The notes below the pieces were generated by a model. It was not told the origin of the DNA, searched no databases, and worked only from the letters and a program-made list of their open reading frames with translations. The position numbers and the translations under genes are program-made. A stretch of DNA of 64,000 nucleotides from a virus: positions 37,253 to 101,252 of the IMG/VR virus record IMGVR_UViG_3300036939_000049, one strand, 5' to 3'. Within the stretch, counting starts at the first letter, position 1. Each line of letters begins with the position of its first letter. Shown here one piece after another: positions 1,299 through 62,579 of this stretch.

Positions 1299-4200
1299 AT
1301 GAAACCTCCTCACTTCGCCAAACGCCCAAAACCCCCGCTCCCGTCAGACGCCCCTACACTAGTCACTGCGTTTAGCTGCGGCGGGTTGTTTGATGTTGGT
1401 GCGTGGCATGCTGGGTTTCGACCTGTATTAGCCGTTGAGTTTTACCCAGCAAAAGGCAAGAAAGATGACAAAGTTAAACAGCGCCAGTCCGCCGCTGCGG
1501 CGGATAACTACGAGCGAAATTTAGGTAAGCACGTTGTCCGCAAAACCATTGAAGATGCTGTGCGCGATCGCGTCTTCGCCAATCACATTCAGCAACACGG
1601 AAGACCCAACGCCTTCCACTGTTCCCCCAGTTGCACCATGTTTAGTCAGGGGAATACCAAGGGTGTAGAAGATGAAGGGGATATTAGTGCCGCAATTGCA
1701 GTGACACATGCGATCGCACAGCTGAATTTTCCTGAAATTTTTACCCTGGAAAATGTCGATGCTTATCAAAAGTCAAAATCGTGGGCAATCATTCGCGACT
1801 TTCTCTACGCCAACGGGTACGGCGTATCGGGTGATGTGGTATTTGCTTCGGACTACGGAAATCTTGAGACGGGTGAGGGCGTGCCCCAAGACCGGAAGCG
1901 CTTTATTGTTCGCGCTGTAAAAAACCACTTTGCCCCACCGCTCCCGCCTAGACTTCCTCAGCGGATGGGATGGTTGAACGCGATCGTGGACTTAATTGAG
2001 GATCTACCTGAAGGTGAACTCGCACCGTGGCAACTTCAAAGACTACCAGCGTTGGTCAAGAGTGTACTTGTTGACGCAAAGAATATTCATCCCAACGACA
2101 AAATAACCACTAGAGAATTTGATCAGCCTGCATTTACCGTAACGAGTGACGATCGTTGTAGGATGCAAGCGTATTTGGTTCGCAACGATAACACCAAGCA
2201 GGAGTGGGGAAAAGGTTATCGAGAAGGGGAAGAACCATCGGCTACAGTTACTGCTACTTACGTCCCTTCGGCTGTGTTGCTGAACGGGCAGAACGCTTCT
2301 GGTAAAGAGGTTCCGCACAGACAAGAAGCTGAACCTGCATTCTCTATTACGACAGGAGCGAAGTGGGCATCGGCGTTATTAGTTGAGCGGGCCGGCGCAA
2401 GCGATGCGCGTATCACAGTTCGTACTGCCGAAGAACCAGCCTGGACTCTTCGCTCCTCCATCGGCACTGACCAAGATGGACGCAACCGCAATGAAGTGAT
2501 GAACGTGGTGATGGGGTATCGGGTCAAGCGATTGAATGCTCGTGCGATCGCGCGACTCCAATCTGTACCCGACTGGTATGAGCTGCCCGACCAAATGAAA
2601 GACGCCGGTCCACTACTGGGGAATGGGGTGCCATGCCTACTGGCAGAAGCGATTATGAAATCACTACTACGGTTCGTTCAGAAGTCTGAGAGTTCACTCT
2701 CACTTAAATCTCAGTTAACCCTTAATTCAAGTTGCGCTCGAACTGAACTCGACATTCAGTCCTCTGAAACAGCTCTGAACGGACTCTGCACGCCCAGTGA
2801 AAATTCAGTGTCAGTTAACTCTCAGTTCACTCCTAATTCAGATCGCGGACAAAGTGAGTTCACTCTATTAAAGGCATCGAACTCGACCAGTCCTCAAAAC
2901 GAAACACTGAACGGACTCCGAACGGTTACTGAAAATTTAGCGTCACTTCAAGAGCAATTCAATCCCAGTTCAATCCCAGTTCAGTCTCAGTTCAGTCTCA
3001 GTTTAACTCCGGTTAAATCACGGAAACCTTTTTTGAAGTGGGCGGGTAAAAAGACTTGGGCGATCGCACTTCTCGAAGAACTGTATGCTCCGCACCGACA
3101 TAAACGCTACCGCGATTTAACCTTAGGCTCAGGTGCAATCCCACTTGCACTTAAGCCCAATCGCGCTTACCTCTCGGATAAAAACCCGTTTCTTATCCAG
3201 TTGTGGGAGTGGGTTAAGTCTGACGGAAAGCTTACCCTTGACCTGCGGACGGATAAGGATTACTACTTAGAGTGTCGAGAGCGGTTTAATACTGGCGATC
3301 CGCAGCAAGCGGAGTTACTCTACTACCTCAACCACACCTGCTGGCGAGGGCTGTATCGCTCTAGCAAAGATAAGTTTTTCAATGTACCGTGGGGCGAGTA
3401 CAAAGAATTTCACGGGCAGACCGACCTTACCCATTACAAGCAAGTAATTGGAAACTGGGAGTTTGCAGTTGAATCCTGGGACGAAAGCTTGCGCCACGTC
3501 CAGGATGATGACTTTATCGTTTTTGACCCACCGTACCACTCAGTCAGCGGCAAAGGGTTTACTCAGTACTGTGGTTCATTCACAGAAGCCGACCAAGTAC
3601 TAGCCGCCCAAACTTTATCTGAGTTGGGCGTACCCGTTGTGGCATTCAACGCCGCTACTGACTTCATCCTCGATCTGTATCGAGGTCTAAACTTTGACGT
3701 TCAACTACATGAGGCTCCTCGCATGATTTCTTCTACAGGCGATCGCGCACCTGCGCTTGAAATGGTCGCGACCAAAAATACACAAGAGCAAAAGCTGGTC
3801 TATATTGAGAATTTCCTTGAGTCTAGACAAGCACAACCGGATGATTCCGAACTCATGTACACGAATCGTGTACATGAATCTGAAGCTACTGAGGGTGACT
3901 TAACCTACGATGAGCAACGCGATCGCGCTCACCTCGAACGGAAAGTTGAAGGGGCGTTCTATGAGGCCGGTAAAGCGCTGAAGGAGTTACGTGATCTCAG
4001 GTTGTACCGGACAACGCACAACGACTTTGAAAGTTACTGCTTAGATCGATTTGGCTTTGGTCGCCAGAATGCCCATAAACAAATCAAAGCCGCCGACGTT
4101 TTCGAGATTCTGTCTACGAATCATGTACAGATTTTGCCTTCTTGTGTTGATCAAGCTGCCCCGCTGGCACATGCTGACCTGACGGATGAGCAGCGGATTA

Positions 4201-4775
4201 AGCTGTGGGAAGACTTAACTCAAGATGGAAGACCCCCGAATGGGAAAAAAGTCAGGAATGCGGTGGCTGAGATTTGTGATCGGCAGGCTGCGCGAGGAGA
4301 GTACCATAATCCCTGGCAAGTAGGGGATTTGTGCCAGATTCATAAAAAAGGCGACGGGACTTTAGCCAAATACGACGGAATGTGGGGTATTGTCCGCGAA
4401 GTTAAAACCAGACAGTGTATTGTTAAAGTCTGGGATGGGGAGCTGCTGGTGAAAGCTGAAAATCTGGAACCTCTGGAACTAGGAGAAGAATTTGTTGCGG
4501 TGTGCGATCGCGTCCGATCGCTCATGTCCCGCCACATAGATGGGGACATCACCCTCAAACGTGGTCAGCTTAGATTCCTTGAGGCGCTGGGTGAGCAAGC
4601 TAAGTTTTTTGAGCCTGAAGATGTGGATATGCTTGCCTATATCGAGAACTTAACCGCTAACCACGATGCTTCTTTGAAACAGGCTACTCAGTTGCTGGTT
4701 GAGAACATTGAGGACTTGAGTGAAGTCGATGCGCGATCACTTTACGACGCCCTTCGCACTGTACACGAATTCTGA
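1299..4775 (+). CDS. Fusion of C5-cytosine DNA methyltransferase, Ser-rich linker, Dam-like (D12-class) N6-adenine methyltransferase and C-terminal putative HTH DNA-binding domain
   Basis: C5 motifs FSCGG, SPSC, ENV, QDRKR, GNGVP. Dam-like motifs FLKWAGKK and DPPY. The C-terminal LERKVEGAFYEAGKALKELRDLRLYR...FESYCLDRFG domain resembles a family I recognise from cyanobacterial plasmids. Confidence 0.88.
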   Translation: MKPPHFAKRPKPPLPSDAPTLVTAFSCGGLFDVGAWHAGFRPVLAVEFYPAKGKKDDKVKQRQSAAAADNYERNLGKHVVRKTIEDAVRDRVFANHIQQHGRPNAFHCSPSCTMFSQGNTKGVEDEGDISAAIAVTHAIAQLNFPEIFTLENVDAYQKSKSWAIIRDFLYANGYGVSGDVVFASDYGNLETGEGVPQDRKRFIVRAVKNHFAPPLPPRLPQRMGWLNAIVDLIEDLPEGELAPWQLQRLPALVKSVLVDAKNIHPNDKITTREFDQPAFTVTSDDRCRMQAYLVRNDNTKQEWGKGYREGEEPSATVTATYVPSAVLLNGQNASGKEVPHRQEAEPAFSITTGAKWASALLVERAGASDARITVRTAEEPAWTLRSSIGTDQDGRNRNEVMNVVMGYRVKRLNARAIARLQSVPDWYELPDQMKDAGPLLGNGVPCLLAEAIMKSLLRFVQKSESSLSLKSQLTLNSSCARTELDIQSSETALNGLCTPSENSVSVNSQFTPNSDRGQSEFTLLKASNSTSPQNETLNGLRTVTENLASLQEQFNPSSIPVQSQFSLSLTPVKSRKPFLKWAGKKTWAIALLEELYAPHRHKRYRDLTLGSGAIPLALKPNRAYLSDKNPFLIQLWEWVKSDGKLTLDLRTDKDYYLECRERFNTGDPQQAELLYYLNHTCWRGLYRSSKDKFFNVPWGEYKEFHGQTDLTHYKQVIGNWEFAVESWDESLRHVQDDDFIVFDPPYHSVSGKGFTQYCGSFTEADQVLAAQTLSELGVPVVAFNAATDFILDLYRGLNFDVQLHEAPRMISSTGDRAPALEMVATKNTQEQKLVYIENFLESRQAQPDDSELMYTNRVHESEATEGDLTYDEQRDRAHLERKVEGAFYEAGKALKELRDLRLYRTTHNDFESYCLDRFGFGRQNAHKQIKAADVFEILSTNHVQILPSCVDQAAPLAHADLTDEQRIKLWEDLTQDGRPPNGKKVRNAVAEICDRQAARGEYHNPWQVGDLCQIHKKGDGTLAKYDGMWGIVREVKTRQCIVKVWDGELLVKAENLEPLELGEEFVAVCDRVRSLMSRHIDGDITLKRGQLRFLEALGEQAKFFEPEDVDMLAYIENLTANHDASLKQATQLLVENIEDLSEVDARSLYDALRTVHEF
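2691..3021 (+). repeat. Three clusters of degenerate 11-bp tandem repeats (about AGTTCAnTCTC) in the MTase linker
   Basis: For example 2956-3010: aattcaatccc agttcaatccc agttcagtctc agttcagtctc agtttaactcc. Similar clusters at 2691-2756 and 2802-2867. Confidence 0.8.
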
Positions 4776-4778
4776 TAC

Positions 4779-4811
4779 AAGAAACCCCCTCGATTTTGAG
4801 GGGTTTCTTTT
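4779..4811. terminator. Bidirectional intrinsic terminator
   Basis: aagaaaccccctcgattttgaggggtttctttt between convergent genes. Confidence 0.75.
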
Positions 4812-6032: not shown

Positions 6033-6242
6033 TTAAGGTTCTAACAAATCCGCAATCTCTTCAATGCCAAGGCCTGTTGCCTTACATAAATTTGCCATTT
6101 GCCTAGGGGTTAACTTTGGTATATGTATACCGCGCTCCCAGTTAGATATTGTCTGATCGGTTACTCCGATTGCATTTGCTAGTTCTCGTTGAGTCATATT
6201 TAGAGATTCTCTAAGCTTTGTCATGCGTTTTCCGGCTGTCAT
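6033..6242 (-). CDS. XRE-family helix-turn-helix regulator
   Basis: LRESLNMTQRELANAIGVTDQTISNWERG. Start placed at MTAGK. Confidence 0.9.
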   Translation of the reverse strand: MTAGKRMTKLRESLNMTQRELANAIGVTDQTISNWERGIHIPKLTPRQMANLCKATGLGIEEIADLLEP

Positions 6243-6247
6243 TCTTT

Positions 6248-6302
6248 GTTTCTTGTAAAACATTCTACTACAAGAAACTTGACCTTTTACAAGTTTCTTG
6301 TA
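6248..6302. promoter_or_regulatory. Probable operator/divergent promoter next to the XRE gene
   Basis: Inverted repeat gtttcttgta...tacaagaaac plus tacaagtttcttgta, overlapping a TTGACC hexamer. Confidence 0.55.
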
Positions 6303-6549
6303 ATACTTAGGTAAATCAAAAGCGATCGCGCCTGTCCTGACAAACTGCACGCGATCGCACTTCTAGCCCTTTCTTAAGAAGGGTTAACATATTATGCCAG
6401 ATTCAGATCAAGATCGTTCTAAAGAAAGTCAAGAGGCTCCGGATGATCGCAACGCTGATCTTTTTGAAGCTCCTGGAACTGATGCGCCTGGTCAACAATC
6501 GCTATGGGAGGTAACGGAAACACCGCCGCCGCGTATCAAGTAAAAACTT

Positions 6550-7003: not shown

Positions 7004-7032
7004 AAAACCGCTCCCAGCAGGGCGGTTTTTTT
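7004..7032. terminator. Intrinsic terminator
   Basis: aaaaccgctcccagcagggcggttttttt between convergent genes. Confidence 0.7.
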
Positions 7033-10036: not shown

Positions 10037-10324
10037 TTGGTAGTTTTGCAAGAGGTTAGGTCTGTGCGGGTTTATCTCGACATCAGCGGGTATTGGCCAA
10101 AATATGGCGATGGAGAGCCGCGATCGGTTAACTCCGTTCACGAGGCGTTAAAGGGGACGCCCAACGAAATTGGACGGAATACCCTGCGTTTGGCACTAGA
10201 AGGGCGTTTAGACCGTGGACACTTCGCTCATGTGATTAAGTTGCAGCGTGTTGTGTCGTACTGGGTTGGGAGAAAGGTTTCGTTGGAAGAGTTGATGACA
10301 GTAGAAGAGGAGCGGCGCGTGTAA
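10037..10324 (+). CDS. Small putative DNA-binding protein
   Basis: 95 aa with a Cro/XRE-like segment (IGRNTLRLALEG...VSLEELM). The stop codon overlaps a 19-bp motif copy. Confidence 0.55.
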   Translation: MVVLQEVRSVRVYLDISGYWPKYGDGEPRSVNSVHEALKGTPNEIGRNTLRLALEGRLDRGHFAHVIKLQRVVSYWVGRKVSLEELMTVEEERRV

Positions 10325-10604
10325 ACTATTCGTGTACATCAAAAACCTCTGGCTTGGAGCTAGAGGTTTGTTTTTGGGTGGGCGCGATCGCGAATAATGT
10401 AATAATAAAGAAGATCGCGTTACGGAGTTTTTCTCCCTGAATGGCTTCCAGTTAGACAAAAGTTGAAGAATGAATGGGTGTCAATGCCCTGGAAAACTCA
10501 TTGGAATTTGGTCTAGGTAGCGCGATTACCGCGTGTAAACGTTTCGTGCACAAAAAACCCCTGGCTTGGAGCTAGGGGTTTGTTTTTGGGTGGGCGCGAT
10601 CGCG
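10317..10604 (+). repeat. About 75-bp direct repeat (10317-10392 and 10531-10604) made of 19-bp motif, hairpin terminator and HIP1
   Basis: gcgtgtaaac..ttcgtg.aca..aaaaacc.ctggcttggagctag.ggtttgtttttgggtgggcgcgatcgcg occurs twice. Confidence 0.85.
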
Positions 10605-12761: not shown

Positions 12762-14045
12762 ATGCGAGTTTTCGTTCTAGATAAAAACCTAATTCCTCTT
12801 GACCCTTGCCATCCAGCACGGGCGAGAGAACTACTACAAAAGGGGAGGGCTAAAGTATTCAAGCGATATCCATTCACTATTGTTCTACAAGATAGAACTG
12901 CGGAGGATTCGGTTACACATCCACATCGAGTCAAAATTGACCCAGGTAGCAAAGTTACAGGGTTTGCGGTTGTTCAAGAAGAAACAGGGCGAGTAACAAA
13001 TGCTTTAGAAGTTGCCCATCGGGGACAGCAAATCAAGGACTCCCTTGAGTCTCGACGCGCTTTAAGAAGAGGTCGGCGCAATCGAAAAACTCGATACCGC
13101 AAGCCTCGCTTCTTGAACAGAACTCGTAAAGCTGGATGGCTTCCACCTTCTCTTGAGAGTCGTATTACCAACATTGAGACTTGGGTAAAGAGACTCAGAA
13201 AACTTTGCCCAGTTACTGCAATTTCTCAGGAATTGGTAAGGTTTGATCTACAGAAAATAGAGAATCCAGAAATTAGTGGGGTTGAGTATCAAAGAGGCGA
13301 ACTGTTTGGCTTCGAGGTTAAGGAATATTTATTAGCTAAATGGAACAGGAAATGCGCCTATTGTGGAGTTGAGAACGTTCCTTTCGAGATTGAACATATC
13401 CTTGCCAAAAGCAAAGGGGGTTCAAACCGAGTTAGTAACCTCTGCCTAAGCTGTCATTCCTGCAACCAATCCAAGGGTAACAAGCCTGTTGAGGAATTCC
13501 TCAAGAAAAAGCCTGAAGTTCTCAAGAGGGTATTAGCTCAAGCCAAAGCACCCCTTAAAGATGCTGCTGCGGTTAACGCAACTCGTTGGGAACTGTATAG
13601 CCGCCTTCAATCTACGGGTTTACCTGTAGAGGTTGGGTCAGGCGGTCGAACAAAGTTTAACCGTAAAACCAGGGGGATTGAGAAACATCACTGGACAGAT
13701 GCCGCTTGTGTTGGAGCATCAACTCCAGAACAACTTCTGCTTAAGGGTGTCAAACCTCTGATTGTTAAAGCTAAAGGTCACGGAACTAGGCAACGCTGTC
13801 GCCCTGATAAGTTTGGTTTTCCAAAAGCGCATGCGCCCAGCGCTAAGTATTTTCAGGGCTTCCAAACCGGAGACATCGTTAAAGCCAACATCCCGTCTGG
13901 AAAATTTGCAGGTAATTATGTTGGCAGAGTTGCTATTCGATTTAGACCAAGTTTCGTCTTGCAACTGCCTACTCAAAAATTTGATGTACACCCAAAATAC
14001 TTGAAAACTATCCACAAAGCGGACGGCTATGAATATCAATTCTGA
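12762..14045 (+). CDS. iscB: RNA-guided endonuclease IscB
   Basis: PLDPCHPARAR (PLMP), IDPGSK (RuvC-I), Arg-rich bridge helix, ELVRFD, CAYC..EHI HNH, HWTDAA. Confidence 0.95.
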   Translation: MRVFVLDKNLIPLDPCHPARARELLQKGRAKVFKRYPFTIVLQDRTAEDSVTHPHRVKIDPGSKVTGFAVVQEETGRVTNALEVAHRGQQIKDSLESRRALRRGRRNRKTRYRKPRFLNRTRKAGWLPPSLESRITNIETWVKRLRKLCPVTAISQELVRFDLQKIENPEISGVEYQRGELFGFEVKEYLLAKWNRKCAYCGVENVPFEIEHILAKSKGGSNRVSNLCLSCHSCNQSKGNKPVEEFLKKKPEVLKRVLAQAKAPLKDAAAVNATRWELYSRLQSTGLPVEVGSGGRTKFNRKTRGIEKHHWTDAACVGASTPEQLLLKGVKPLIVKAKGHGTRQRCRPDKFGFPKAHAPSAKYFQGFQTGDIVKANIPSGKFAGNYVGRVAIRFRPSFVLQLPTQKFDVHPKYLKTIHKADGYEYQF

Positions 14046-15961: not shown

Positions 15962-17245
15962 ATGCGCGTTTTCGTTCTAGACAAAAACTTAAAGCCTCTT
16001 GACCCTTGCCATCCTGCACGGGCAAGAGAACTACTACAAAAAAGGAGGGCGAAAGTATTCAAGCGCTATCCATTCACCATTGTTTTGCAAGATAGAACCG
16101 TTGAGGATTCGGTTACACATCCTCACCGAATCAAAATTGACCCCGGTAGCAAAATCACGGGCTTTGCTGTTGTTCAAGAGAAGACAGGTCGCGTCACAAG
16201 CGCCATTGAAGTCTCGCACCGAGGGCTGCAAATCAAGGATGCTCTTGAGTCACGCAGGGCATTACGAAGGGGTCGGCGTAACCGTAAAACCCGTTACCGT
16301 AAACCTCGTTTCTTGAACAGAACTCGTAAACAGGGATGGCTTCCACCTTCTTTTGAAAGTCGAATAGCCAATATTGAGACTTGGGTGCGGAGGATCAGAA
16401 AACTCTGTCCAATTTCAGACATCTCTCAAGAACTGGTAAGGTTTGACCTTCAACAGATGGAAAATCCTGAAATATCAGGAGTTGAGTATCAAAGAGGGGA
16501 GTTATTCGGATTTGAAGTTAAGGAGTACTTACTTCAAAAATGGGGTAGAAAATGTGCCTACTGCGGCATTGAAAACGTTCCGTTCGAGATTGAACATATC
16601 CTCGCCAAAAGCAAAGGTGGCTCTAATAGAGTTAGCAATCTCTGTCTGAGTTGTCATTCATGCAACCAAGCCAAAGGCAACAAGCCTGTTGAGGAATTCC
16701 TCAAGAAAAAACCTGAAGTTCTCAAACAGATTTTAGCTCAAGCCAAAGCACCTCTCAAAGATGCTGCGGCTGTCAATGCGACCCGATGGGAACTGTACAG
16801 ACGACTGCAATCAACTGGGTTGCCTGTAGAAGTCGGGTCTGGCGGTCGGACAAAGTTCAATCGTAAAACCAGAGGGATTGAAAAAGCTCACTGGACTGAT
16901 GCAGCTTGTGTAGGTGCGTCTACTCCAGGGCGATTACTTCTTAATGGGGTAAAACCACTGAATGTCAAAGCCAAAGGGCATGGAAGAAGGCAGCGTTGCG
17001 GTACAGACAAATTTGGATTCCCAGTCCGTCATGCTCCAAGTCAGAAACTTTTCATGGGATTCCAGACAGGTGACTTGGTTAAAGCTGATGTTCTGGCTGG
17101 AAAGTATGCAGGGAGCTATACGGGTCGAATTGCAATCCGATTCAAACCAAGTTTCAAGTTAACAACTGGAGGAAAGAGTTTTGACGTGCATCCGAAATAT
17201 TTGAAGACCATCCATAAGGCTGATGGCTACGAATATGCATCCTAA
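15962..17245 (+). CDS. iscB: RNA-guided endonuclease IscB
   Basis: Same motifs and length (427 aa) as 12762-14045. Confidence 0.95.
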   Translation: MRVFVLDKNLKPLDPCHPARARELLQKRRAKVFKRYPFTIVLQDRTVEDSVTHPHRIKIDPGSKITGFAVVQEKTGRVTSAIEVSHRGLQIKDALESRRALRRGRRNRKTRYRKPRFLNRTRKQGWLPPSFESRIANIETWVRRIRKLCPISDISQELVRFDLQQMENPEISGVEYQRGELFGFEVKEYLLQKWGRKCAYCGIENVPFEIEHILAKSKGGSNRVSNLCLSCHSCNQAKGNKPVEEFLKKKPEVLKQILAQAKAPLKDAAAVNATRWELYRRLQSTGLPVEVGSGGRTKFNRKTRGIEKAHWTDAACVGASTPGRLLLNGVKPLNVKAKGHGRRQRCGTDKFGFPVRHAPSQKLFMGFQTGDLVKADVLAGKYAGSYTGRIAIRFKPSFKLTTGGKSFDVHPKYLKTIHKADGYEYAS

Positions 17246-30379: not shown

Positions 30380-30599
30380 GGAATGTACACGAAAAGTTTA
30401 CACGACTTGGCGCGATCTCGTAGTAATATAATAAGTGATCGCACCCCACCTCCAATTTTTCCGGACGACGATCTCTACCCGATTTTTGCTGATTAATCAG
30501 CAAAAATTGAAAGTCAATCTCCGCCAGGAATCCAGCATTTTCAAAAGCTGCTTTCTTATTATTTTTTCGACTATAACCAAACCGCAACCACGATGTAAA

Positions 30600-30923
30600 C
30601 TATTCGTGTACAAAAACTGCAAGCTTTAAAGTTTTCTGTTCAGTATCCCAGTAAAACTCTCCTGGCTGCGGTTCCCCTAAACTTCGAGTGTACCTGCGAC
30701 CCATGTACTCGATCGCGTCCAGCCTTTTTATCCTCAACCCTTTCACACTCACTTCAATTACGTGTGTTGTAGGGGTAGGGATAGGGAGTGATATGGATTT
30801 ATTACCTTCAAGACCGATTACGGCAATCAGTGCCCCGTAACACTCTTTCCCCGTCCCTAGTTCAAAATGCGCTGAGCTTAGGGCGTTGTTTGTTTCGTTG
30901 TTGGAACCTTCGAGTGTGAACAC
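30600..30923 (-). CDS. Hypothetical structural-block protein
   Basis: PQPGEFY resembles PQSGEFA in the next gene. Ends on a 19-bp motif copy. Confidence 0.6.
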   Translation of the reverse strand: MFTLEGSNNETNNALSSAHFELGTGKECYGALIAVIGLEGNKSISLPIPTPTTHVIEVSVKGLRIKRLDAIEYMGRRYTRSLGEPQPGEFYWDTEQKTLKLAVFVHE

Positions 30924-38657: not shown

Positions 38658-38984
38658 TTGATGCTGAATTTTAAAAAGATTGTACGCGATCACGAAACTA
38701 TACAGCAAAGCGCCGATACAAGACTCAAACTATATCTTCGACTCATTGATGAAAGGGATAAGCGCGATCGCATGACTGATTTCAAAAAGCTCAGAGCCTA
38801 CCTTAATCGTATTGCCGAAGTTGCTGAAGAAGATAGTAACTCGGTTATTAGCCTAGGAATTATCCCTGCGGTGCGAGAAGCAATTCAAGAGTTAGATAGA
38901 CTTGAGCAGGAGCGCGATCGCGAAGCGAGAAGATCGAAACGCAGATCGCGCCATGTACACGATTCGTGTACAAACCCAGACTAA
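38658..38984 (+). CDS. Hypothetical protein
   Basis: 108-aa helical ORF. Confidence 0.55.
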   Translation: MMLNFKKIVRDHETIQQSADTRLKLYLRLIDERDKRDRMTDFKKLRAYLNRIAEVAEEDSNSVISLGIIPAVREAIQELDRLEQERDREARRSKRRSRHVHDSCTNPD

Positions 38985-39277
38985 AACAAAAGCCACCTAC
39001 TTCGAGGGTGGCTTTCTGGGGTAGTTGACCAATTCTGAAATTTGTTCGCGGTTCATCTGTAAACTTTTTGTGTACAAAGCTTGAGCCAAGCCAAGTCGAG
39101 CTGCTTGTTGCTGTAGATTATGCGTGATCGCTCCAGCCGATAGCAAAGAACCAAAACCCAAAAGCATGACAGTAGCCGTCATACCATATTTTGATGTACC
39201 CTAAGTAGCGAGAATCTGAATCCAACCATATCAACCCATCAAGCTTGTATTTTGTCAGTTTTTTGAACATAGTTTTA

Positions 39278-40895: not shown

Positions 40896-41081
40896 ATTTG
40901 TATTTAGCGCTTATTCAGTGATTCATGAATAAGCGCTTCAACTCTTGATAATGGCTCTTTTCGTGAGTTCAACTCATGTACACGAATCGTGTACAAAGAA
41001 AAGCAGAGCGTAATCACGCTCTGCTTTTTGCTACCCAAGTTTTTTTAGGCATGACTCGATGCTGACCAAGGGATAACATAG

Positions 41082-41537: not shown

Positions 41538-41773
41538 AAGTTAGCGTGCAAACGATTCGTGTACACCACTAGTGAGAAAAATAATTTGTCGATTGTGACC
41601 TTCAAAGCTTGCTTTACCCTTTGGTAAAGCAACTTCATATAAGGATGAAATGCGATCGCGAAGTGCCTCTGCAAAGCGCAGTTTGCGCTTCCAGATTCCA
41701 TGTACACGATTCGTGTACAACTAAAAACCCCTTCAAGACGACAGAGGTTTGATTGCGAGATTTGTGGGGCGCG

Positions 41774-42790: not shown

Positions 42791-43030
42791 TCAAATTTTA
42801 CACTCACAATTATTGCAGCTACTCTCGTCTTTAACCTTACCCATGACTAACTTCCAGCACCCCATAGATCCGTTTAGCGCTTCTGGATACTGGCACCAAC
42901 TTGGCTGTTGATACCACCGCATGGCAGCTTTACCAGGAATTCTCCCGGCTAGCTCATAAGGCTGTTCGTGGAAATAAGGCTTGGTCATAGCGCGATCACA
43001 TGTACACGAATCGTGTACATGAAAAATCAA
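42791..43030 (-). CDS. Small Cys-rich hypothetical protein
   Basis: QPSWCQYP..GCWKL..C..C. Real start probably at MTKPY. Confidence 0.5.
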   Translation of the reverse strand: MIFHVHDSCTCDRAMTKPYFHEQPYELAGRIPGKAAMRWYQQPSWCQYPEALNGSMGCWKLVMGKVKDESSCNNCECKI

Positions 43031-44349
43031 GCTTCTAGGTGGGGAAGTATCACCTGAATCTCGGTTCCCAGGTTTTCTTGAGATTCTACAATAATTTGAC
43101 CGTCGAGCAGGTCTACAGTTTTTTTCACGATTGCAAGTCCTAGACCAGTACCGGCAACAGCCCCAACATTACTCCCTCTTTCAAACACACCATACAAATC
43201 CATCGAAGACGGGATTCCTATTCCAGAATCCCTGACGATGAAACAAATTGTATTCGATTCTGCAACGACAAGCACAAGCACGGTTCCAGTACTGTACTTG
43301 AGCGCATTGCCGATTAAATTGCTAAAGATTTTGTATAGTAGACCCTCATCGCAGTATATCTCTGCGACTTGGATATTCAATAAGACGCGAGAGCTTTCAG
43401 GGAAAGACTCAATCAGCGCTTCAAACCAAGGACGCAGTTGGATAGTTACAGGATTAAGTTGAACACGTTCTGAGTCCAGCCGAAACACCAACAGTACATC
43501 ATCGGTCATGCGTGTGAGTCGCTCTACTCCTTTTTTGATTTGATTGATATGTCGATGAAACTTGTCGCTAGCTGGTGGATCTTTTTCCAATAACAAGGCG
43601 GCGGTTAAGATAGCGGTCAGTGGCGTGCGATATTCATGAGAAATAGTCTGAATGATTGCCGACTTTGCCTCGCTCACTTCCTCTTGTTTTTTTAAGGCCT
43701 CTTCTTTCGCCAGTCGCAACCCCTCTTCTAATTCCAACGATCGCTCAGCCCTGTCAAAAGCGAATTTCATTGCTTTTGCATTCTGATAGGTAAGCCACAG
43801 CAGTAGTAGCAACGAGGATATCGCAATAATTGTCAGGACTAAATCCCTTCGCTCTCGACGCCGCCGTTCATTAATTAAGCGATCGCGTTCCCCCTCCAGC
43901 TCTGTTTTTAATTCACCCAGAATCCCCCGCAGTTTATCCATGTGCTGCTTGCCTTGCCTTAATAATGCTGGTGATGGATTCTGGATTATTTTATTGGACA
44001 GTATCAAAAACTGATTCACTTGATTATCAAGTTCTGGGAATTGACCCTGGGTGTCTAATTCTTCCAACAGTCCCGGAAGTTGCCGCTGACCTTCCCAGTA
44101 AGGATCGAGAAATCTGGAATCTTTAGTGCCTGCAAATCCCCGTGTTCCAGTTTCTAGGTTGAGTAGTTGCGTGAGTAATTCATCAACGCTATCGGCTTTT
44201 TGCCGCACAGATGTTAGTTGTTCACTGGCGACTTTCTCTTGGTTCAACCGATAGTAAAACAAAGTACTGGAAGGTAAAGATAAAGCCCCGACGACCGCAA
44301 GCGCAAATACTGTACGCCTGTATAACTGACTAAATACTACAAGCGGCAT
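43027..44349 (-). CDS. CHASE3-domain sensor histidine kinase
   Basis: TM, LLNLETGTRGF..FLDPY (CHASE3), TM, SHEYRTPL, NLIGNALKY, DSGIGI, GTGLGL. Start uncertain (ORF open to 44478). Confidence 0.92.
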   Translation of the reverse strand: MPLVVFSQLYRRTVFALAVVGALSLPSSTLFYYRLNQEKVASEQLTSVRQKADSVDELLTQLLNLETGTRGFAGTKDSRFLDPYWEGQRQLPGLLEELDTQGQFPELDNQVNQFLILSNKIIQNPSPALLRQGKQHMDKLRGILGELKTELEGERDRLINERRRRERRDLVLTIIAISSLLLLLWLTYQNAKAMKFAFDRAERSLELEEGLRLAKEEALKKQEEVSEAKSAIIQTISHEYRTPLTAILTAALLLEKDPPASDKFHRHINQIKKGVERLTRMTDDVLLVFRLDSERVQLNPVTIQLRPWFEALIESFPESSRVLLNIQVAEIYCDEGLLYKIFSNLIGNALKYSTGTVLVLVVAESNTICFIVRDSGIGIPSSMDLYGVFERGSNVGAVAGTGLGLAIVKKTVDLLDGQIIVESQENLGTEIQVILPHLEA

Positions 44350-44662
44350 ACGATGAAGGGTTGCTGCTCCGAATTCTTCTATGATAAACGACTCGCTTTT
44401 AAACGTGGTGTAGGCGGATAGTTTATTGAGCACTTTCGTGTACATGAAAGTGCAAGTGTGACGTGAACGTTTAAGCACTCCCGATTACTTTCAACGAAAT
44501 TGTGTAATAATTTTATAAATGCAAAGCCGCCAAGTTTTTGGAGAACTTGGCGGTTGTAAACCATGAAAAGAGTATATGTATAGTATACTCGAATTTTTTT
44601 AAGCTAGTAAACTACAAACGATTACGTACATGTGTTTCGTCTAACCCTATCCACGCGATCGC

Positions 44663-45235: not shown

Positions 45236-45345
45236 AGCGAACTCTATTTCGCTGACGTTATTCACTGGATGCGCGATCGCGCTCCCAAATGTACACGAAT
45301 AGTTTACACATCAAAAACCCCCGTCTCATGACAGGGGTTTATTTT

Positions 45346-45415: not shown

Positions 45416-45499
45416 AAATCAACAACCCGTTACATGTACTTGTTTTGATCGAGTTTTTTTGATGAACAATTTCCATGTACACGATTCGTGTACATCAAC

Positions 45500-47101
45500 T
45501 CAAAAATACCCTCGAATATCCCTAGCTGAACTTCGTCTATCCTCAGACGTTCGTTCTTGCCGACGTCGTGCAGCTCCAAAGAAATCTCTCACGTTCTCAT
45601 CTTTGGTATCTTGCTTTAAGACTTTGCCAGCTTTCTTACGCGCCGCATAATTTGCCAACACCAACGCGATCGCGGCATCACCGTGACGCTTCCCACCATC
45701 TTTACCTTTATATCGACTTCGCTCTGGAACTTTGGGTACACCATTATGTTCTTCAATAGCGGCATGATCGGTTTTTATGTCTTCGTCATATGGCATCCGC
45801 AGACGCTCATCTTCCAACGCTTTTTTGTAATCTGGCATGGCTTCCAAATACCAAGGCTGTGTCGGCATCACTTTCTCAATGCGACTCGCGCCATACTTCG
45901 TTTCAGCAAACTCTGCCAAAGCCGTCCCATTCCCCCTAGCGTCACTAGCCCCACCACAGAAATTAGGGAGGTGGTCGATTACGCCGTACAGTATTTGCTC
46001 TTGCCGTTTGATTGGTACATTCCGCAGTTCTATAAGCAAGGGACAGTAGAGTCTTACCTTCCCTTCAATAGTCACACCACTCCAATCATCTTCGAGTAGT
46101 AACGCGATCGCGCTGATATCTCCCGTGCGTCCAAAGTCCATACCGTAATAAGACTTCTGGTGACGAGGTAAGGCGTTAATTAATGGGTAAATTTTGTCTT
46201 TGAGCCATTCCTGAATTTCTGTTAACTGTACGGGTTGAGACTTGATATTAAATTCATCAGGTAATGCTAGTCGCACCACCGAGTAGCGCCTATCCATTCG
46301 TGCTTCTACCAGTAATGGTGGAATGTAAGCTCCGCCACCTGCTTTTGGATTACAGAACAACTCCTCATCAGCGTCATCCCCATACTGATCGATCATGTCC
46401 TGCCGCCATTTCTCTTGCCCTTTAACAGACCAGTCTTTCCCAGTCATTAAACAAATACGCCTATACAACCCAGCCGCGATCGCGTCATCAAACGTGACTT
46501 TATGCAATGAGTACGGACGCTTCCCAGCCTTAACTTCTTCAATGAGCTGGTTAAACGCATTAGTTACACCGTCATGTGTTGAAATAATGTGTACCGAGCC
46601 GCCCCACATTAAGAGCGCGATCGCGGCTTTAAGTAACTCTAGTGGGTTTGGGTGGAAGGCAAATTCATCTAAGATGACTCGTCCTTTTTTCCCTCGCAAG
46701 TTAGTAGGGCGTGAAGTTAACCCAGTTACTCGATACCCTGATGCCATCTTGATGCGGTAAGCCAGAATATCGCGTTCTGATTGAATTACCTCTTCTGGAA
46801 ATACTACACCTTCCGATACCAGCTCCTGCTTACTAACAGCTGTCACCTCAGTTGCCACTTCTTGATACTGCTTTACCCAGAAAGTGCAATCCTGCATAAA
46901 CTCCAACGCACCTTCTTCGTTCGCGCCAATGTACCAAGTGTCTTTTCCATTTCGTCCCGATGTTGCTGCCATCAACACTGAGTCTGCCGCCTCAGCCCAT
47001 GTAATCCCAATCTGGCGGCTTTTTTCAATAATCTTGACGTCGCTTTTGTCTAATATCCATTGTTGCTGGTATGAAAGCAATACCGCTTTAGTCTCTGTCA
47101 T
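45500..47101 (-). CDS. terL: Terminase large subunit (Mu gp28-like)
   Basis: KSRQIGITW Walker A, VILDEFAF Walker B, IISTH, GMDFGRTGD nuclease, HGDAAIA. Confidence 0.93.
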   Translation of the reverse strand: MTETKAVLLSYQQQWILDKSDVKIIEKSRQIGITWAEAADSVLMAATSGRNGKDTWYIGANEEGALEFMQDCTFWVKQYQEVATEVTAVSKQELVSEGVVFPEEVIQSERDILAYRIKMASGYRVTGLTSRPTNLRGKKGRVILDEFAFHPNPLELLKAAIALLMWGGSVHIISTHDGVTNAFNQLIEEVKAGKRPYSLHKVTFDDAIAAGLYRRICLMTGKDWSVKGQEKWRQDMIDQYGDDADEELFCNPKAGGGAYIPPLLVEARMDRRYSVVRLALPDEFNIKSQPVQLTEIQEWLKDKIYPLINALPRHQKSYYGMDFGRTGDISAIALLLEDDWSGVTIEGKVRLYCPLLIELRNVPIKRQEQILYGVIDHLPNFCGGASDARGNGTALAEFAETKYGASRIEKVMPTQPWYLEAMPDYKKALEDERLRMPYDEDIKTDHAAIEEHNGVPKVPERSRYKGKDGGKRHGDAAIALVLANYAARKKAGKVLKQDTKDENVRDFFGAARRRQERTSEDRRSSARDIRGYF

Positions 47102-47936: not shown

Positions 47937-48247
47937 CTATTAGATTTTTCGTTACACCAGCCAAGCTTTTGGATTTAACTGACCAAGGATCTGCTTATTC
48001 CCCAGTTGTTGATGCGGTTGTTTGTAAAGCATTTTATTTAGCTGTACAGGCTGTTGCTTCAAAGTTTGACCTTGACTACATGACGGCAAGAGCAAAGCTT
48101 GTTGAGCTGTACAAATACCAGCAAGTATTTAGTTTTTATGGTATTTGCTCTCATGCGCTGGAAGGTTCTGGGTACGTTTCAGAGGAGTTAACTAAATTCG
48201 CTTTACGCCAACGCGATTACACCCTCAACTCAAATGTACATGAATAG
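47933..48247 (+). CDS. Hypothetical protein
   Basis: ATGA coupling; ends on a 19-bp motif copy. Confidence 0.6.
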   Translation: MTIRFFVTPAKLLDLTDQGSAYSPVVDAVVCKAFYLAVQAVASKFDLDYMTARAKLVELYKYQQVFSFYGICSHALEGSGYVSEELTKFALRQRDYTLNSNVHE

Positions 48248-48256
48248 TTTACATTG

Positions 48257-51351: not shown

Positions 51352-51673
51352 ACCAGCTTCCGTAATGGTTGTTGGCTTCTTGTGCTTAGCTTAGGTAGTC
51401 TTAACAGGTCTTATGTGATCGCGAAGCGCTGCTACGAAGCGCAGATCGCGCTCCTAAATCTCACGTACACGAATCGTGTACATCATCGAGCATCAGCCAC
51501 ATTAGCATAGAGCGCTCTCAGTTGTTGTAGTGCCCTTACTCGACTTCTGGGAGACTTGCTCATGTGCCTACCGTTGACACTCACTATGTAGAACCGACTA
51601 CGCTTTCCTTTCCTAACTCGATGCAAATGGTACGGCATAGCAAGACACGGGATTTATTATAATTCTAACCTGT

Positions 51674-52053: not shown

Positions 52054-52287
52054 ATGGAGAAAAGGTGCCAGTCTCTTGTCGTCGTCAATATGGCATGGGC
52101 ATGGGGAGCGAATGGAATGCCAAGTTGATGGCGTAACCCAATCACGAAGTGCCGCTGCAAAGCGCGATCGCGCCCTAACTTTTCCGCCGCTGTAAACTTT
52201 TCGTGTACATCTTCCTTCCCTCAGTTAGCGTCCGACCCGCTACTGGGGGTTTTACTTTACCCTGTTCAAACTAAAGCTTTTTCAATC

Positions 52288-56014: not shown

Positions 56015-56071
56015 CTTGACTACAATGTACACGAAAAGTTTACACCGTGATCGCGTTCCATATCTTGACTA

Positions 56072-60024: not shown

Positions 60025-60188
60025 TGCTGTTTTGCTTTTTTGACGCGATCGCGGCTTATCAAAAAGCTGTCAATCACATCAAGCAAAACTTTAGCATGTA
60101 CACGATTCGTGTACATGACCCAAGCCCGTAGCACCGCCCCTAGGCTACGGGCATTACTGGGCGGACGAAAAAAAGTTTGAGGTAAGCA

Positions 60189-62126: not shown

Positions 62127-62540
62127 ATGCAACCCAATTCATGCGATGCCGTAAAAGGCGGAGAATCGCCCATCATTCAAGCTGTAGTACTAGGAATCGC
62201 CTCCCAGTGTGAACATCCAGAGCACAGGCAATTCGCATTAGACATGGCGGCAGCAGGTATTGCTACAGCAATAGGAAGTCATCGATTGTACTGGCACGGA
62301 CCTGCGGCGCATGGTGAAGACGTTTCTGAAATCATGTCTCAAACGCGAGTACGATGCATTTGGGATGAGTCCGGCAAAGGTGTTGTTGTGTATCCGCGTG
62401 TGTATACACCAAACAGCCTAATGTTGATGCTAGAAAATCTAGAGTCTGTAGAAATTGGGATTGGATTGTACTGGCATCAAGGACAACCTCTGCACGCGAT
62501 CGCAAAGAATGCCTTAGAGCAAATCAAAGAAATTCTGTAA
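62127..62540 (+). CDS. Hypothetical protein
   Basis: Stop codon lies within a 19-bp motif copy. Confidence 0.65.
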   Translation: MQPNSCDAVKGGESPIIQAVVLGIASQCEHPEHRQFALDMAAAGIATAIGSHRLYWHGPAAHGEDVSEIMSQTRVRCIWDESGKGVVVYPRVYTPNSLMLMLENLESVEIGIGLYWHQGQPLHAIAKNALEQIKEIL

Positions 62541-62579
62541 ACGTTTCGTGTACAAAAACAACCACTACAGCCCCTGCAA

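Follow-up and report, generated by a model that had tools for sequence, protein, structure and literature searches.

A putative self-addressed DNA-binding module fused to two DNA methyltransferase domains in a large phage

A 64,000-nucleotide stretch of viral DNA (the window, bases 37,253 to 101,252 of the 101,252-bp IMG/VR record IMGVR_UViG_3300036939_000049, a phage referred to here as G000) carries a gene at positions 1299 to 4775 of the plus strand whose 1,158-residue product joins a C5 cytosine methyltransferase (MTase), a Dam-type N6-adenine MTase, and a putative DNA-binding tail. The open reading frame list delimited the gene, and both MTase domains exceed the curated cutoffs of their profiles. 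The C5 domain (residues 31 to 457; 1389 to 2669, same strand) matched Pfam PF00145 (DNA_methylase) over its whole length with an E value of 1.9e-19 and 70.7 bits against a cutoff of 22. The N6 domain (residues 576 to 815; 3024 to 3743, same strand) matched PF02086 (MethyltransfD12) over residues 581 to 799 (E value of 2.4e-29; 103.3 bits against a cutoff of 22) and the TIGR00571 dam model (143 bits against a cutoff of 114.85). The last 306 residues (853 to 1158) constitute the tail. Just beyond the gene, a terminator search placed a bidirectional intrinsic terminator at 4786 to 4803, common to this gene and a convergent KilA-N gene.

The tail-coding region contains three copies of one 19-bp palindrome, and the 25-bp palindrome, degenerate copy, and half copy reported in the original prediction were all present. 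The first site, at the N-terminal boundary of the tail, is a perfect motif (3856 to 3874) inside a 25-bp palindrome with perfect 12-nt arms (3853 to 3877; TCATGTACACGA-A-TCGTGTACATGA), which includes an in-frame ATG at 3855 and encodes the peptide MYTNRVHE. The second (4111 to 4129; peptide LSTNHVQ) has mismatches at 3 of 19 positions and begins within the last codon (Leu) of the predicted recognition helix, at an offset of −2 nt, with the perfect copy 255 nt upstream. The third (4760 to 4779) is a half-decayed copy overlapping the stop codon at 4773 to 4775; positions 4760 to 4770 (TGTACACGAAT) preserve the exact left half and center, and the right half has decayed. The chance expectation for such a copy in the 920-bp stretch is about 0.0003. 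Production of the tail as a separate protein from the ATG at 3855 had also been proposed, but this methionine is missing in G001, a related phage described below, and in three of the four relatives that keep the region (P0025 to P0027), and the ATG has no Shine-Dalgarno-like sequence upstream. It simply belongs to the extended palindrome. A promoter-like match at 3779 to 3806 was set aside, as it scored only 9 of 12 and such matches were no more frequent than in shuffled sequence.

The same palindrome (TGTACACGAWTCGTGTACA; consensus TGTACACGA-W-TCGTGTACA) is scattered over the phage genome. Allowing up to 3 mismatches, 32 strand matches representing about 20 sites were found in the window; the chance expectation for 64 kb is 0.02. 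The complete record contains 25 sites at up to 4 mismatches, including the three in the MTase gene. Although about 89% of the genome is coding, 21 to 23 of the 25 sites are intergenic by rough gene calls, and the only convincing copies inside a gene are those of the MTase gene. The motif is private to G000: no other IMG/VR contig contained it, and 596 gigabases of species-representative genomes had one exact match, compared with about 4 expected by chance.

Because the motif is palindromic, intergenic, and often beside terminators, and because one site and its terminator have been duplicated as a module (10320/10534), the copies could in principle act as RNA hairpins or be mobile repeats of the repetitive extragenic palindromic (REP) or miniature inverted-repeat type. 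The variation among sites argues otherwise. No compensatory changes were found between the halves of dispersed sites, and Watson-Crick pairing at variable positions was not above the level of independent halves (0.36 versus 0.55 expected at position 5/15 in G000; 0.62 versus 0.59 expected at position 6/14 in G001). Symmetry extends up to a single central base, a property that a hairpin does not select, and the flanks of sites are not conserved. We therefore rejected the hairpin or REP explanation as extremely improbable. In G000, the weak half (TGTAAAC) is nearly always partnered by a consensus half. Since the halves vary independently and a weak half is paired with a consensus half, the pattern is that of a protein dimer on two half-sites rather than an RNA hairpin or cruciform. 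The motif center (GAATC, a GANTC site) was also considered as a methylation target and dropped, as the centers of palindromes in relatives differ freely (CAATTG, CCATGG, and others).

A comparison set beforehand asked whether the palindromes inside the gene follow the dispersed motif of each replicon. The second phage, G001 (154 kb, 98% complete), encodes a close relative of the fusion protein and has only 27 detectable orthologues in common with G000. No copies of the G000 motif were found in G001, which instead has 29 copies of its own 19-bp palindrome, TGACAWCGAWTCGWTGTCA. Three of these lie in the homologous MTase gene, at the tail N-boundary, directly after the helix, and at the stop codon, so that the palindromes at homologous gene positions match the different dispersed motif of G001, as the original prediction anticipated. 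The stop-codon copy of G001 agrees exactly with the degenerate consensus of that phage; its TGA is both the stop codon and the first three bases of the site, and a terminator follows. About seven G001 genes end on the TGA of a motif copy, for example at 7026, 8661, 22180, 81986, 99666, and 121318. One intergenic junction common to both phages (a35|a36 in G000 and b7|b10 in G001) bears the respective motif of each. The recognition helix segments also differ between the two proteins, RQNAHKQIKAAD in G000 and HQNADKKIAAAR in G001.

Detectable relatives of the tail number about 6,800 and include stand-alone proteins of about 300 residues on many Nostocales plasmids as well as C5-MTase fusions on Gloeothece plasmids. 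For a family-wide analysis, 35 independent loci of diverse G+C content were assembled (G000, G001, two plasmids, and 31 viral contigs), and palindromes were sought in a 212-nt interval surrounding and following the point where the putative recognition helix ends. A perfect palindrome with 9+9 arms was present in 18 of 35 loci, and an 18/19-bp palindrome with no more than one mismatch was present in 27 of 35; shuffled sequences and random real windows yielded 0.2 to 1.2% and 4 to 6%, respectively. In 20 of 33 loci the palindrome begins in the final Leu or Val codon of the helix-coding segment, 2 or 4 nt from its end. Palindromes have the common outline TG....C.A(W)T.G....CA and otherwise differ between loci. 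An 18/19-bp palindrome that begins at or just before the end of the segment coding for the putative recognition helix is the defining trait of what we regard as a putative self-addressed family.

Helix and palindrome appear to travel as matched pairs. For example, four loci with highly dissimilar backgrounds combine the helix RNYANK.IAAA with GGGTAC arms, and other pairs include ERRHAYRL with TGTGTCC, RAHAYRL with TGTCTCC, and TKQR.YQLMD with AGTCAAC. Conversely, the loci L014, L019, and L020 are identical in the 35 residues preceding the helix and carry different helix-palindrome pairs, as do L015, L023, and L029. A partial Mantel test of palindrome against helix, with the rest of the domain controlled, returned r = 0.37 (p = 2e-4). 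Within cassette groups, about one-third to two-thirds of conserved helix codons differ synonymously, yet the palindrome arms are identical, and for this reason the DNA palindrome itself is considered to be under selection. Some homologues encode several different perfect palindromes in the linker: three occur 36 nt apart in L003 (10215 to 10305), and two kinds occur among repeated peptide units in L009 (10233 to 10372). Such multiple linker palindromes may be cross-recognition sites for paralogues, of which Nostocales plasmids hold 2 to 9.

Sequence searches provided little information about the tail. Only a sub-threshold Anticodon_2 match was obtained in Pfam and nothing in NCBIfam; the PDB, queried with the sequence and with a family profile, contained no relevant match and no ParB, and Pfam HTH_ParB and related models did not match at an E value below 1. 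In PHROGs, the only match was phrog_1733, of “unknown function,” and no homologues were found in 50,697 cultured-phage records. DUF3102 (PF11300) had no Pfam match in the tail; weak leads toward this family were an Atlas cluster (score of 0.85, 16% of members with DUF3102) and DUF3102 proteins in BFVD at E values of 0.1 to 1.3.

An AlphaFold2 model built from 77 homologues had a predicted local distance difference test (pLDDT) score of 91 and was divided into three parts, all encoded on the plus strand. Tail residues 14 to 149 (3894 to 4301) form a predicted seven-helix domain of the ParB/Noc/KorB type, in which residues 70 to 88 (4062 to 4118; RQNAHKQIKAADVFEILS) are the putative recognition helix of the helix-turn-helix (HTH), the segment that co-varies with the palindrome. 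Residues 150 to 209 (4302 to 4481) form a KOW/SH3/Tudor-like beta-barrel that the aligner VIA matched to KOW6-7 of DSIF (Z score of 9.7; root mean square deviation of 1.4 Å over 56 residues) and to the NusG KOW domain (Z score of 8.6). A C-terminal helical domain (4482 to 4772) completes the tail. Modeled alone, the first helical domain reached a pLDDT of 96, and its best structural match was the alpha-domain of Raf1 (Z score of 10.6; 20% identity to Anabaena Raf1). The original prediction had raised a ParB-HTH-like fold, and ParB-family domains did recur with both aligners used, VIA and Foldseek, at middling scores. VIA matched Caulobacter ParB-parS 6s6h with a Z score of 8.1 over 118 residues, Spo0J (1vz0) with 7.5, SopB on DNA with 6.8, and KorB on its operator (1r71/8qa8) with 6.2, along with VirB and P1 ParB; Foldseek matched Noc with a template modeling (TM) score of 0.62 to 0.67 and also returned Spo0J, SopB, ParB, and KorB. 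Across ParB-family DNA-binding domains, Z scores of 4.5 to 8.1 and TM scores of 0.5 to 0.67 all fell under firm thresholds, so the modeled fold resembles a ParB DNA-binding domain and is not proven to be one.

The tail was also predicted to form a homodimer. The median ipSAE interface score of three runs was 0.42, versus 0.00 for the best control; in our calibration, 20 of 30 known homodimers and 1 of 23 monomers scored this high. Partner pLDDT was at least 76, and contact agreement between runs was at least 58%. The predicted interface comprises the first two helices of the helical domain, which are the two most conserved helices, and C-terminal helices, with residues 271 to 306 forming its second part.

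Taken together, the in-gene sites, co-variation, fold similarity, and predicted dimer make it very probable that the tail (residues 853 to 1158) binds the G000 motif. This part of the original prediction is strongly supported; separate expression of the domain, another part, is not. Another phage protein, such as the HTH_3 protein encoded at 6033 to 6350 or the KilA-N protein, might instead bind the dispersed motif, with the MTase gene as one more target. Further DNA-binding proteins are indeed encoded nearby, and binding by the tail is itself deduced. Such an alternative is quite unlikely, however, as the palindrome at a fixed offset co-varies with the helix of this family in phages and plasmids that are unrelated and have no other gene in common.

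Relatives of the module differ in partner, in arrangement, and in the number of sites. In cyanobacterial elements the HTH module is C-terminal to C5 MTases. In other phages, where 10 cases were tested, it is N-terminal; six are joined to PF05869 Dam-type MTases and two to MT-A70 MTases, and a DUF5131 protein also occurs as a partner, so that four MTase families (C5 DNA_methylase, D12 Dam, PF05869 Dam, and MT-A70) have been fused to it. The DUF5131 case (L023, 9926 to 10777) joins the module to a radical-SAM-like phage Gp37/Gp68 family protein instead of an MTase, and its helix and palindrome are identical to those of a Dam fusion in L012. In HTH-MTase fusions the in-gene site separates the part coding for the HTH from the part coding for the MTase; in stand-alone forms, a ParB-like gene lies downstream of it. 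The palindrome was strictly single-copy, even at 2 to 3 mismatches, in four smaller phages (45 to 61 kb; two are 100% complete), was unique in a 292-kb Gloeothece plasmid, and was present only in the gene, as two copies, in the 408-kb pCC7120alpha. Among the relatives examined, one site inside the gene is therefore usual, and we infer that this is also the ancestral condition; the 25 to 29 dispersed copies would be a derived trait of two large cyanophages.

In 6 of 9 cases, a ParB-like gene (PHROGs 12305 or 1033) begins 2 to 5 nt after a stand-alone form of about 200 residues. Among the downstream genes, one encodes DUF6551, and most have DGxHR-type motifs of the ParB-N fold. These pairs (L011, L013, L030, L032, L033, and L035) look like a ParB split into a reader and a partner with the nucleoside triphosphatase (NTPase) fold. 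A function in ParB-like anchoring or partition, in which the sites would be dispersed centromere-like or loading sites, for example of a plasmid prophage, would agree with this pairing, with the modeled ParB-type fold, with the abundance of stand-alone homologues on Nostocales plasmids, and with P0028, a relative of the fusion protein in which a weak ParB_N match replaces the HTH part. It would leave the fusion to four MTase families unexplained, and ParB_N (PF02195) had no match in the fusion protein or anywhere in G000 or G001, where no ParA was noticed either. Partition is accordingly an unlikely function for these sites.

The reading we prefer, plausible though with a probability somewhat below even, is that the purpose of the sites is to recruit the fused MTases in cis. 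A dimeric HTH module of the ParB/KorB type would read the two half-sites of the palindrome, and the dispersed copies would concentrate the C5 and N6 MTases on the fast-replicating DNA of the phage and not on the genome of the host, which is far larger. Because the site is part of the gene, reader and address would stay inseparable when the module moves, so that both are inherited as one unit, and the three in-gene copies could also give feedback on the MTase gene. In G000 and its relative G001, addresses would have been multiplied to 25 to 29 copies parked at the 3′ ends of genes. Four observations fit recruitment in cis: site location is independent of the promoter, four unrelated MTase families have been fused to the module, the motif is private, and many sites occur in the two largest genomes.

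The placement of individual sites bears directly on the main competing explanation, a role in transcription. In both phages the sites are mostly intergenic, many are within 12 nt of a stop codon (11 of those in G000), and an intrinsic terminator follows many of them by a few bases. Perfect motifs lie 7 nt past the stop codon of a histidine kinase gene (43001 to 43019), 5 nt past the stop codon of the terminase gene (45476 to 45494), and at 38954 to 38972, 40977 to 40995, 41701 to 41719, and 60097 to 60115. Another site (41547 to 41565) begins 9 nt past a stop codon, one (48235 to 48253) separates two convergent stop codons, and one (56026 to 56044) occupies a 57-nt junction of co-directional genes. 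The TAA within TGTAAAC is the stop codon of the upstream gene at 62536 to 62554 and likewise acts as a stop codon at 10320 to 10338, a site followed by a terminator at 10343 to 10369. The site at 10534 to 10552 precedes a terminator at 10555 to 10581. In this one convergent region, a site and a near-identical 27-nt terminator hairpin have been duplicated 214 bp apart (10320 to 10381 and 10534 to 10593), the sole case in which the flanks of a site are repeated too. Further sites were mapped at 30594 to 30612, 39058 to 39076 (4 mismatches), 45290 to 45308, 51464 to 51482, and 52191 to 52209. The site at 30384 to 30402 stands out as the clearest candidate for regulation: it is positioned 4 nt 5′ of the start codon of a minus-strand gene for a 911-residue protein and covers the probable ribosome-binding region of that gene.

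If the tail acts in transcription, it would still bind the motif, with the in-gene site as an intragenic operator or roadblock for feedback, the dispersed copies punctuating 3′ ends in a stoperator-like form of insulation or silencing, and the MTase fusion serving only self-regulation. This function, which does not exclude recruitment, is possible but doubtful. Most relatives have one site, inside the gene, and its position between the HTH and MTase parts of fusions or upstream of a ParB-like gene would suit such feedback. Over both phages, convergent intergenic regions contain 14 sites versus 4.5 expected by length and divergent (promoter) regions only 2 versus 9.8 expected, and several sites occupy co-directional junctions of 0 to 30 nt. 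The HTH-bearing C5 MTases SsoII, EcoRII, and MspI repress their own genes; such known autoregulatory MTases, however, use promoter operators and not intragenic ones. In addition, a roadblock would contribute little at the many sites that directly precede an intrinsic terminator, and the sites in the G000 gene are downstream of both MTase-coding parts. Lysogeny is not indicated, as no integrase turned up among the proteins scanned, in a survey not aimed specifically at integrases.

Several observations weigh against motif binding by the tail or against recruitment in cis. As a structural match, every ParB is outscored by the alpha-domain of Raf1, a protein part that does not bind DNA, and the ParB scores are middling (Z scores of 6 to 8; Foldseek E values above 1e-3); judging from the models, the alpha-domain of this Rubisco assembly factor may itself derive from a ParB-type fold. 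The hallmark copy after the helix has 3 mismatches in the window, and the copy at the stop codon is half decayed. As no more than about 60 nt separates the helix from the hallmark palindrome, part of the family-wide co-variation may reflect linkage or recombination of cassettes. The G000/G001 comparison is free of this weakness because it involves sites unlinked to the gene. Dispersal is known from two phages only, and when P0026 and alignment A2 were used to scan viral and metagenome contigs, no further case than G001 was recovered. The in-gene-only sites of four smaller phages and two large plasmids suit autoregulation better, a single site being a weak basis for genome-wide methylation. Finally, the enrichment in convergent regions and depletion in divergent regions fit a function at transcription ends as well as neutral parking.

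The remaining content of the window is that of a tailed phage, and completeness of the record was estimated at 80%. The large terminase subunit is encoded at 45500 to 47101 (minus strand), and other products include a 1,920-residue protein with a Mu-F-like head domain and a fragment of a family A DNA polymerase. The octamer of highly iterated palindrome 1 (HIP1; GCGATCGC) occurs 96 times in the whole window against 0.7 expected, and this excess points to a cyanobacterial host. The total GATC count, also over the whole window, was at expectation (253 versus 246). By analogy with host enzymes, the Dam and C5 domains of the fusion protein may have the GATC/CGATCG core of HIP1 as their target. Beside the KilA-N protein, two 427-residue paralogues with RRXRR and HNH domains (12762 to 14045 and 15962 to 17245, plus strand, 2 kb apart) are possibly homing endonucleases. 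A complete sensor histidine kinase with CHASE3, HisKA, and HATPase_c domains (43027 to 44478, minus strand) is an unusual auxiliary gene for a phage.

Extended to all of the roughly 6,800 relatives, these observations permit a general model that we consider tentative and on balance improbable as a whole, in which a family of ParB-fold HTH modules is self-addressed. Each module would tag its replicon at once upon arrival, the nascent protein would load in cis, and fused MTases or ParB-like partners would be directed to their own DNA; large cyanophages would have multiplied the address for replicon-private methylation. If this is true, the natural helix/half-site cassettes would form a readable recognition code. 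The fixed in-gene site, which differs among relatives, would supply hundreds to thousands of natural protein-site pairs without experiment, useful for learning HTH recognition rules and for designing orthogonal DNA-binding parts. G000 and G001 provide a testable case in which specificity and some 25 to 29 genomic sites change together between related phages. Should the tail indeed bind its motif, the palindrome would be the first DNA address that we could find defined for a phage MTase fusion. Such an address would point to a way in which mobile elements direct epigenetic self-marking, or the control of genes, to their own DNA and not that of the host. It is also relevant to the still puzzling ParB-like-MTase fusions seen in phages and in the leading regions of plasmids.

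The ingredients are already known: ParB-type DNA-binding domains, sites in the gene of the binder, dispersed sites, and fusions of MTases with DNA-binding domains. In line with the earlier statement that no description of such a system was known, the libraries and literature searched contained no name for the family, no Pfam model of it, and no paper on it, and literature on in-gene sites, DUF3102, and HTH-MTase autoregulation yielded nothing on a self-addressed HTH family. What appears undescribed in these sources is the family, its fixed-offset in-gene palindrome with helix/half-site cassettes, and the concerted change of specificity and 25 to 29 sites between two phages.

Among known systems, ParB, Spo0J, Noc, and KorB with their parS, NBS, and OB sites resemble the tail in having a helical HTH domain, to which its modeled fold is similar at middling scores, and a dimer (here predicted) on a palindrome of 16 to 19 bp. 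The gene of a binder can hold its own site, as does Bacillus subtilis spo0J with parS, and KorB combines a C-terminal SH3-like domain with 12 dispersed operators. The present proteins differ in the absence of an N-terminal ParB/Srx (CTPase) domain and of similarity by Pfam or PDB profiles, and in the family-wide in-gene site at a fixed codon offset, sites at gene 3′ ends rather than promoters, and fusion to MTases. Phage N15 also scatters palindromic sites for a ParB-family protein over its genome; it has four dispersed centromere sites, a full SopA/SopB partition system, and no MTase.

The stoperators of mycobacteriophages L5 and Bxb1 are a second point of reference, as two to three dozen copies of one site occupy short intergenic spaces there, much like the 25 sites of G000 and 29 of G001. 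Stoperators are 13-bp, asymmetric, oriented with transcription, and bound by the immunity repressor gp71, whereas the sites described here are palindromic and their presumed binder is an MTase fusion. M.SsoII, M.EcoRII, and M.MspI are MTases with an HTH for a palindrome tied to their own gene, the role that the tail HTH would have as a putative reader. In these enzymes, a short N-terminal HTH region acts at an operator in the promoter, with no in-gene site or dispersal. Here the HTH is C-terminal and of a different fold class, and the sites are in coding sequence and at the stop codon.

Further known systems are fusions of the ParB-CTPase fold with MTases, which a published survey reports to be enriched in phages, with a role “perhaps in anti-defense” (PMC12704722), and related MTases of leading regions (PMC7736820). 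In both the former and the present proteins, a DNA MTase is joined to a module of the ParB world in mobile elements. The described fusions have the N-terminal ParB/Srx fold, whereas the fusion protein of G000 has a DNA-binding part with a putative cognate site, and modules of the two types can co-occur as neighboring genes. The module described here looks like the DNA-reading counterpart of the ParB-CTPase-fold-MTase fusions.

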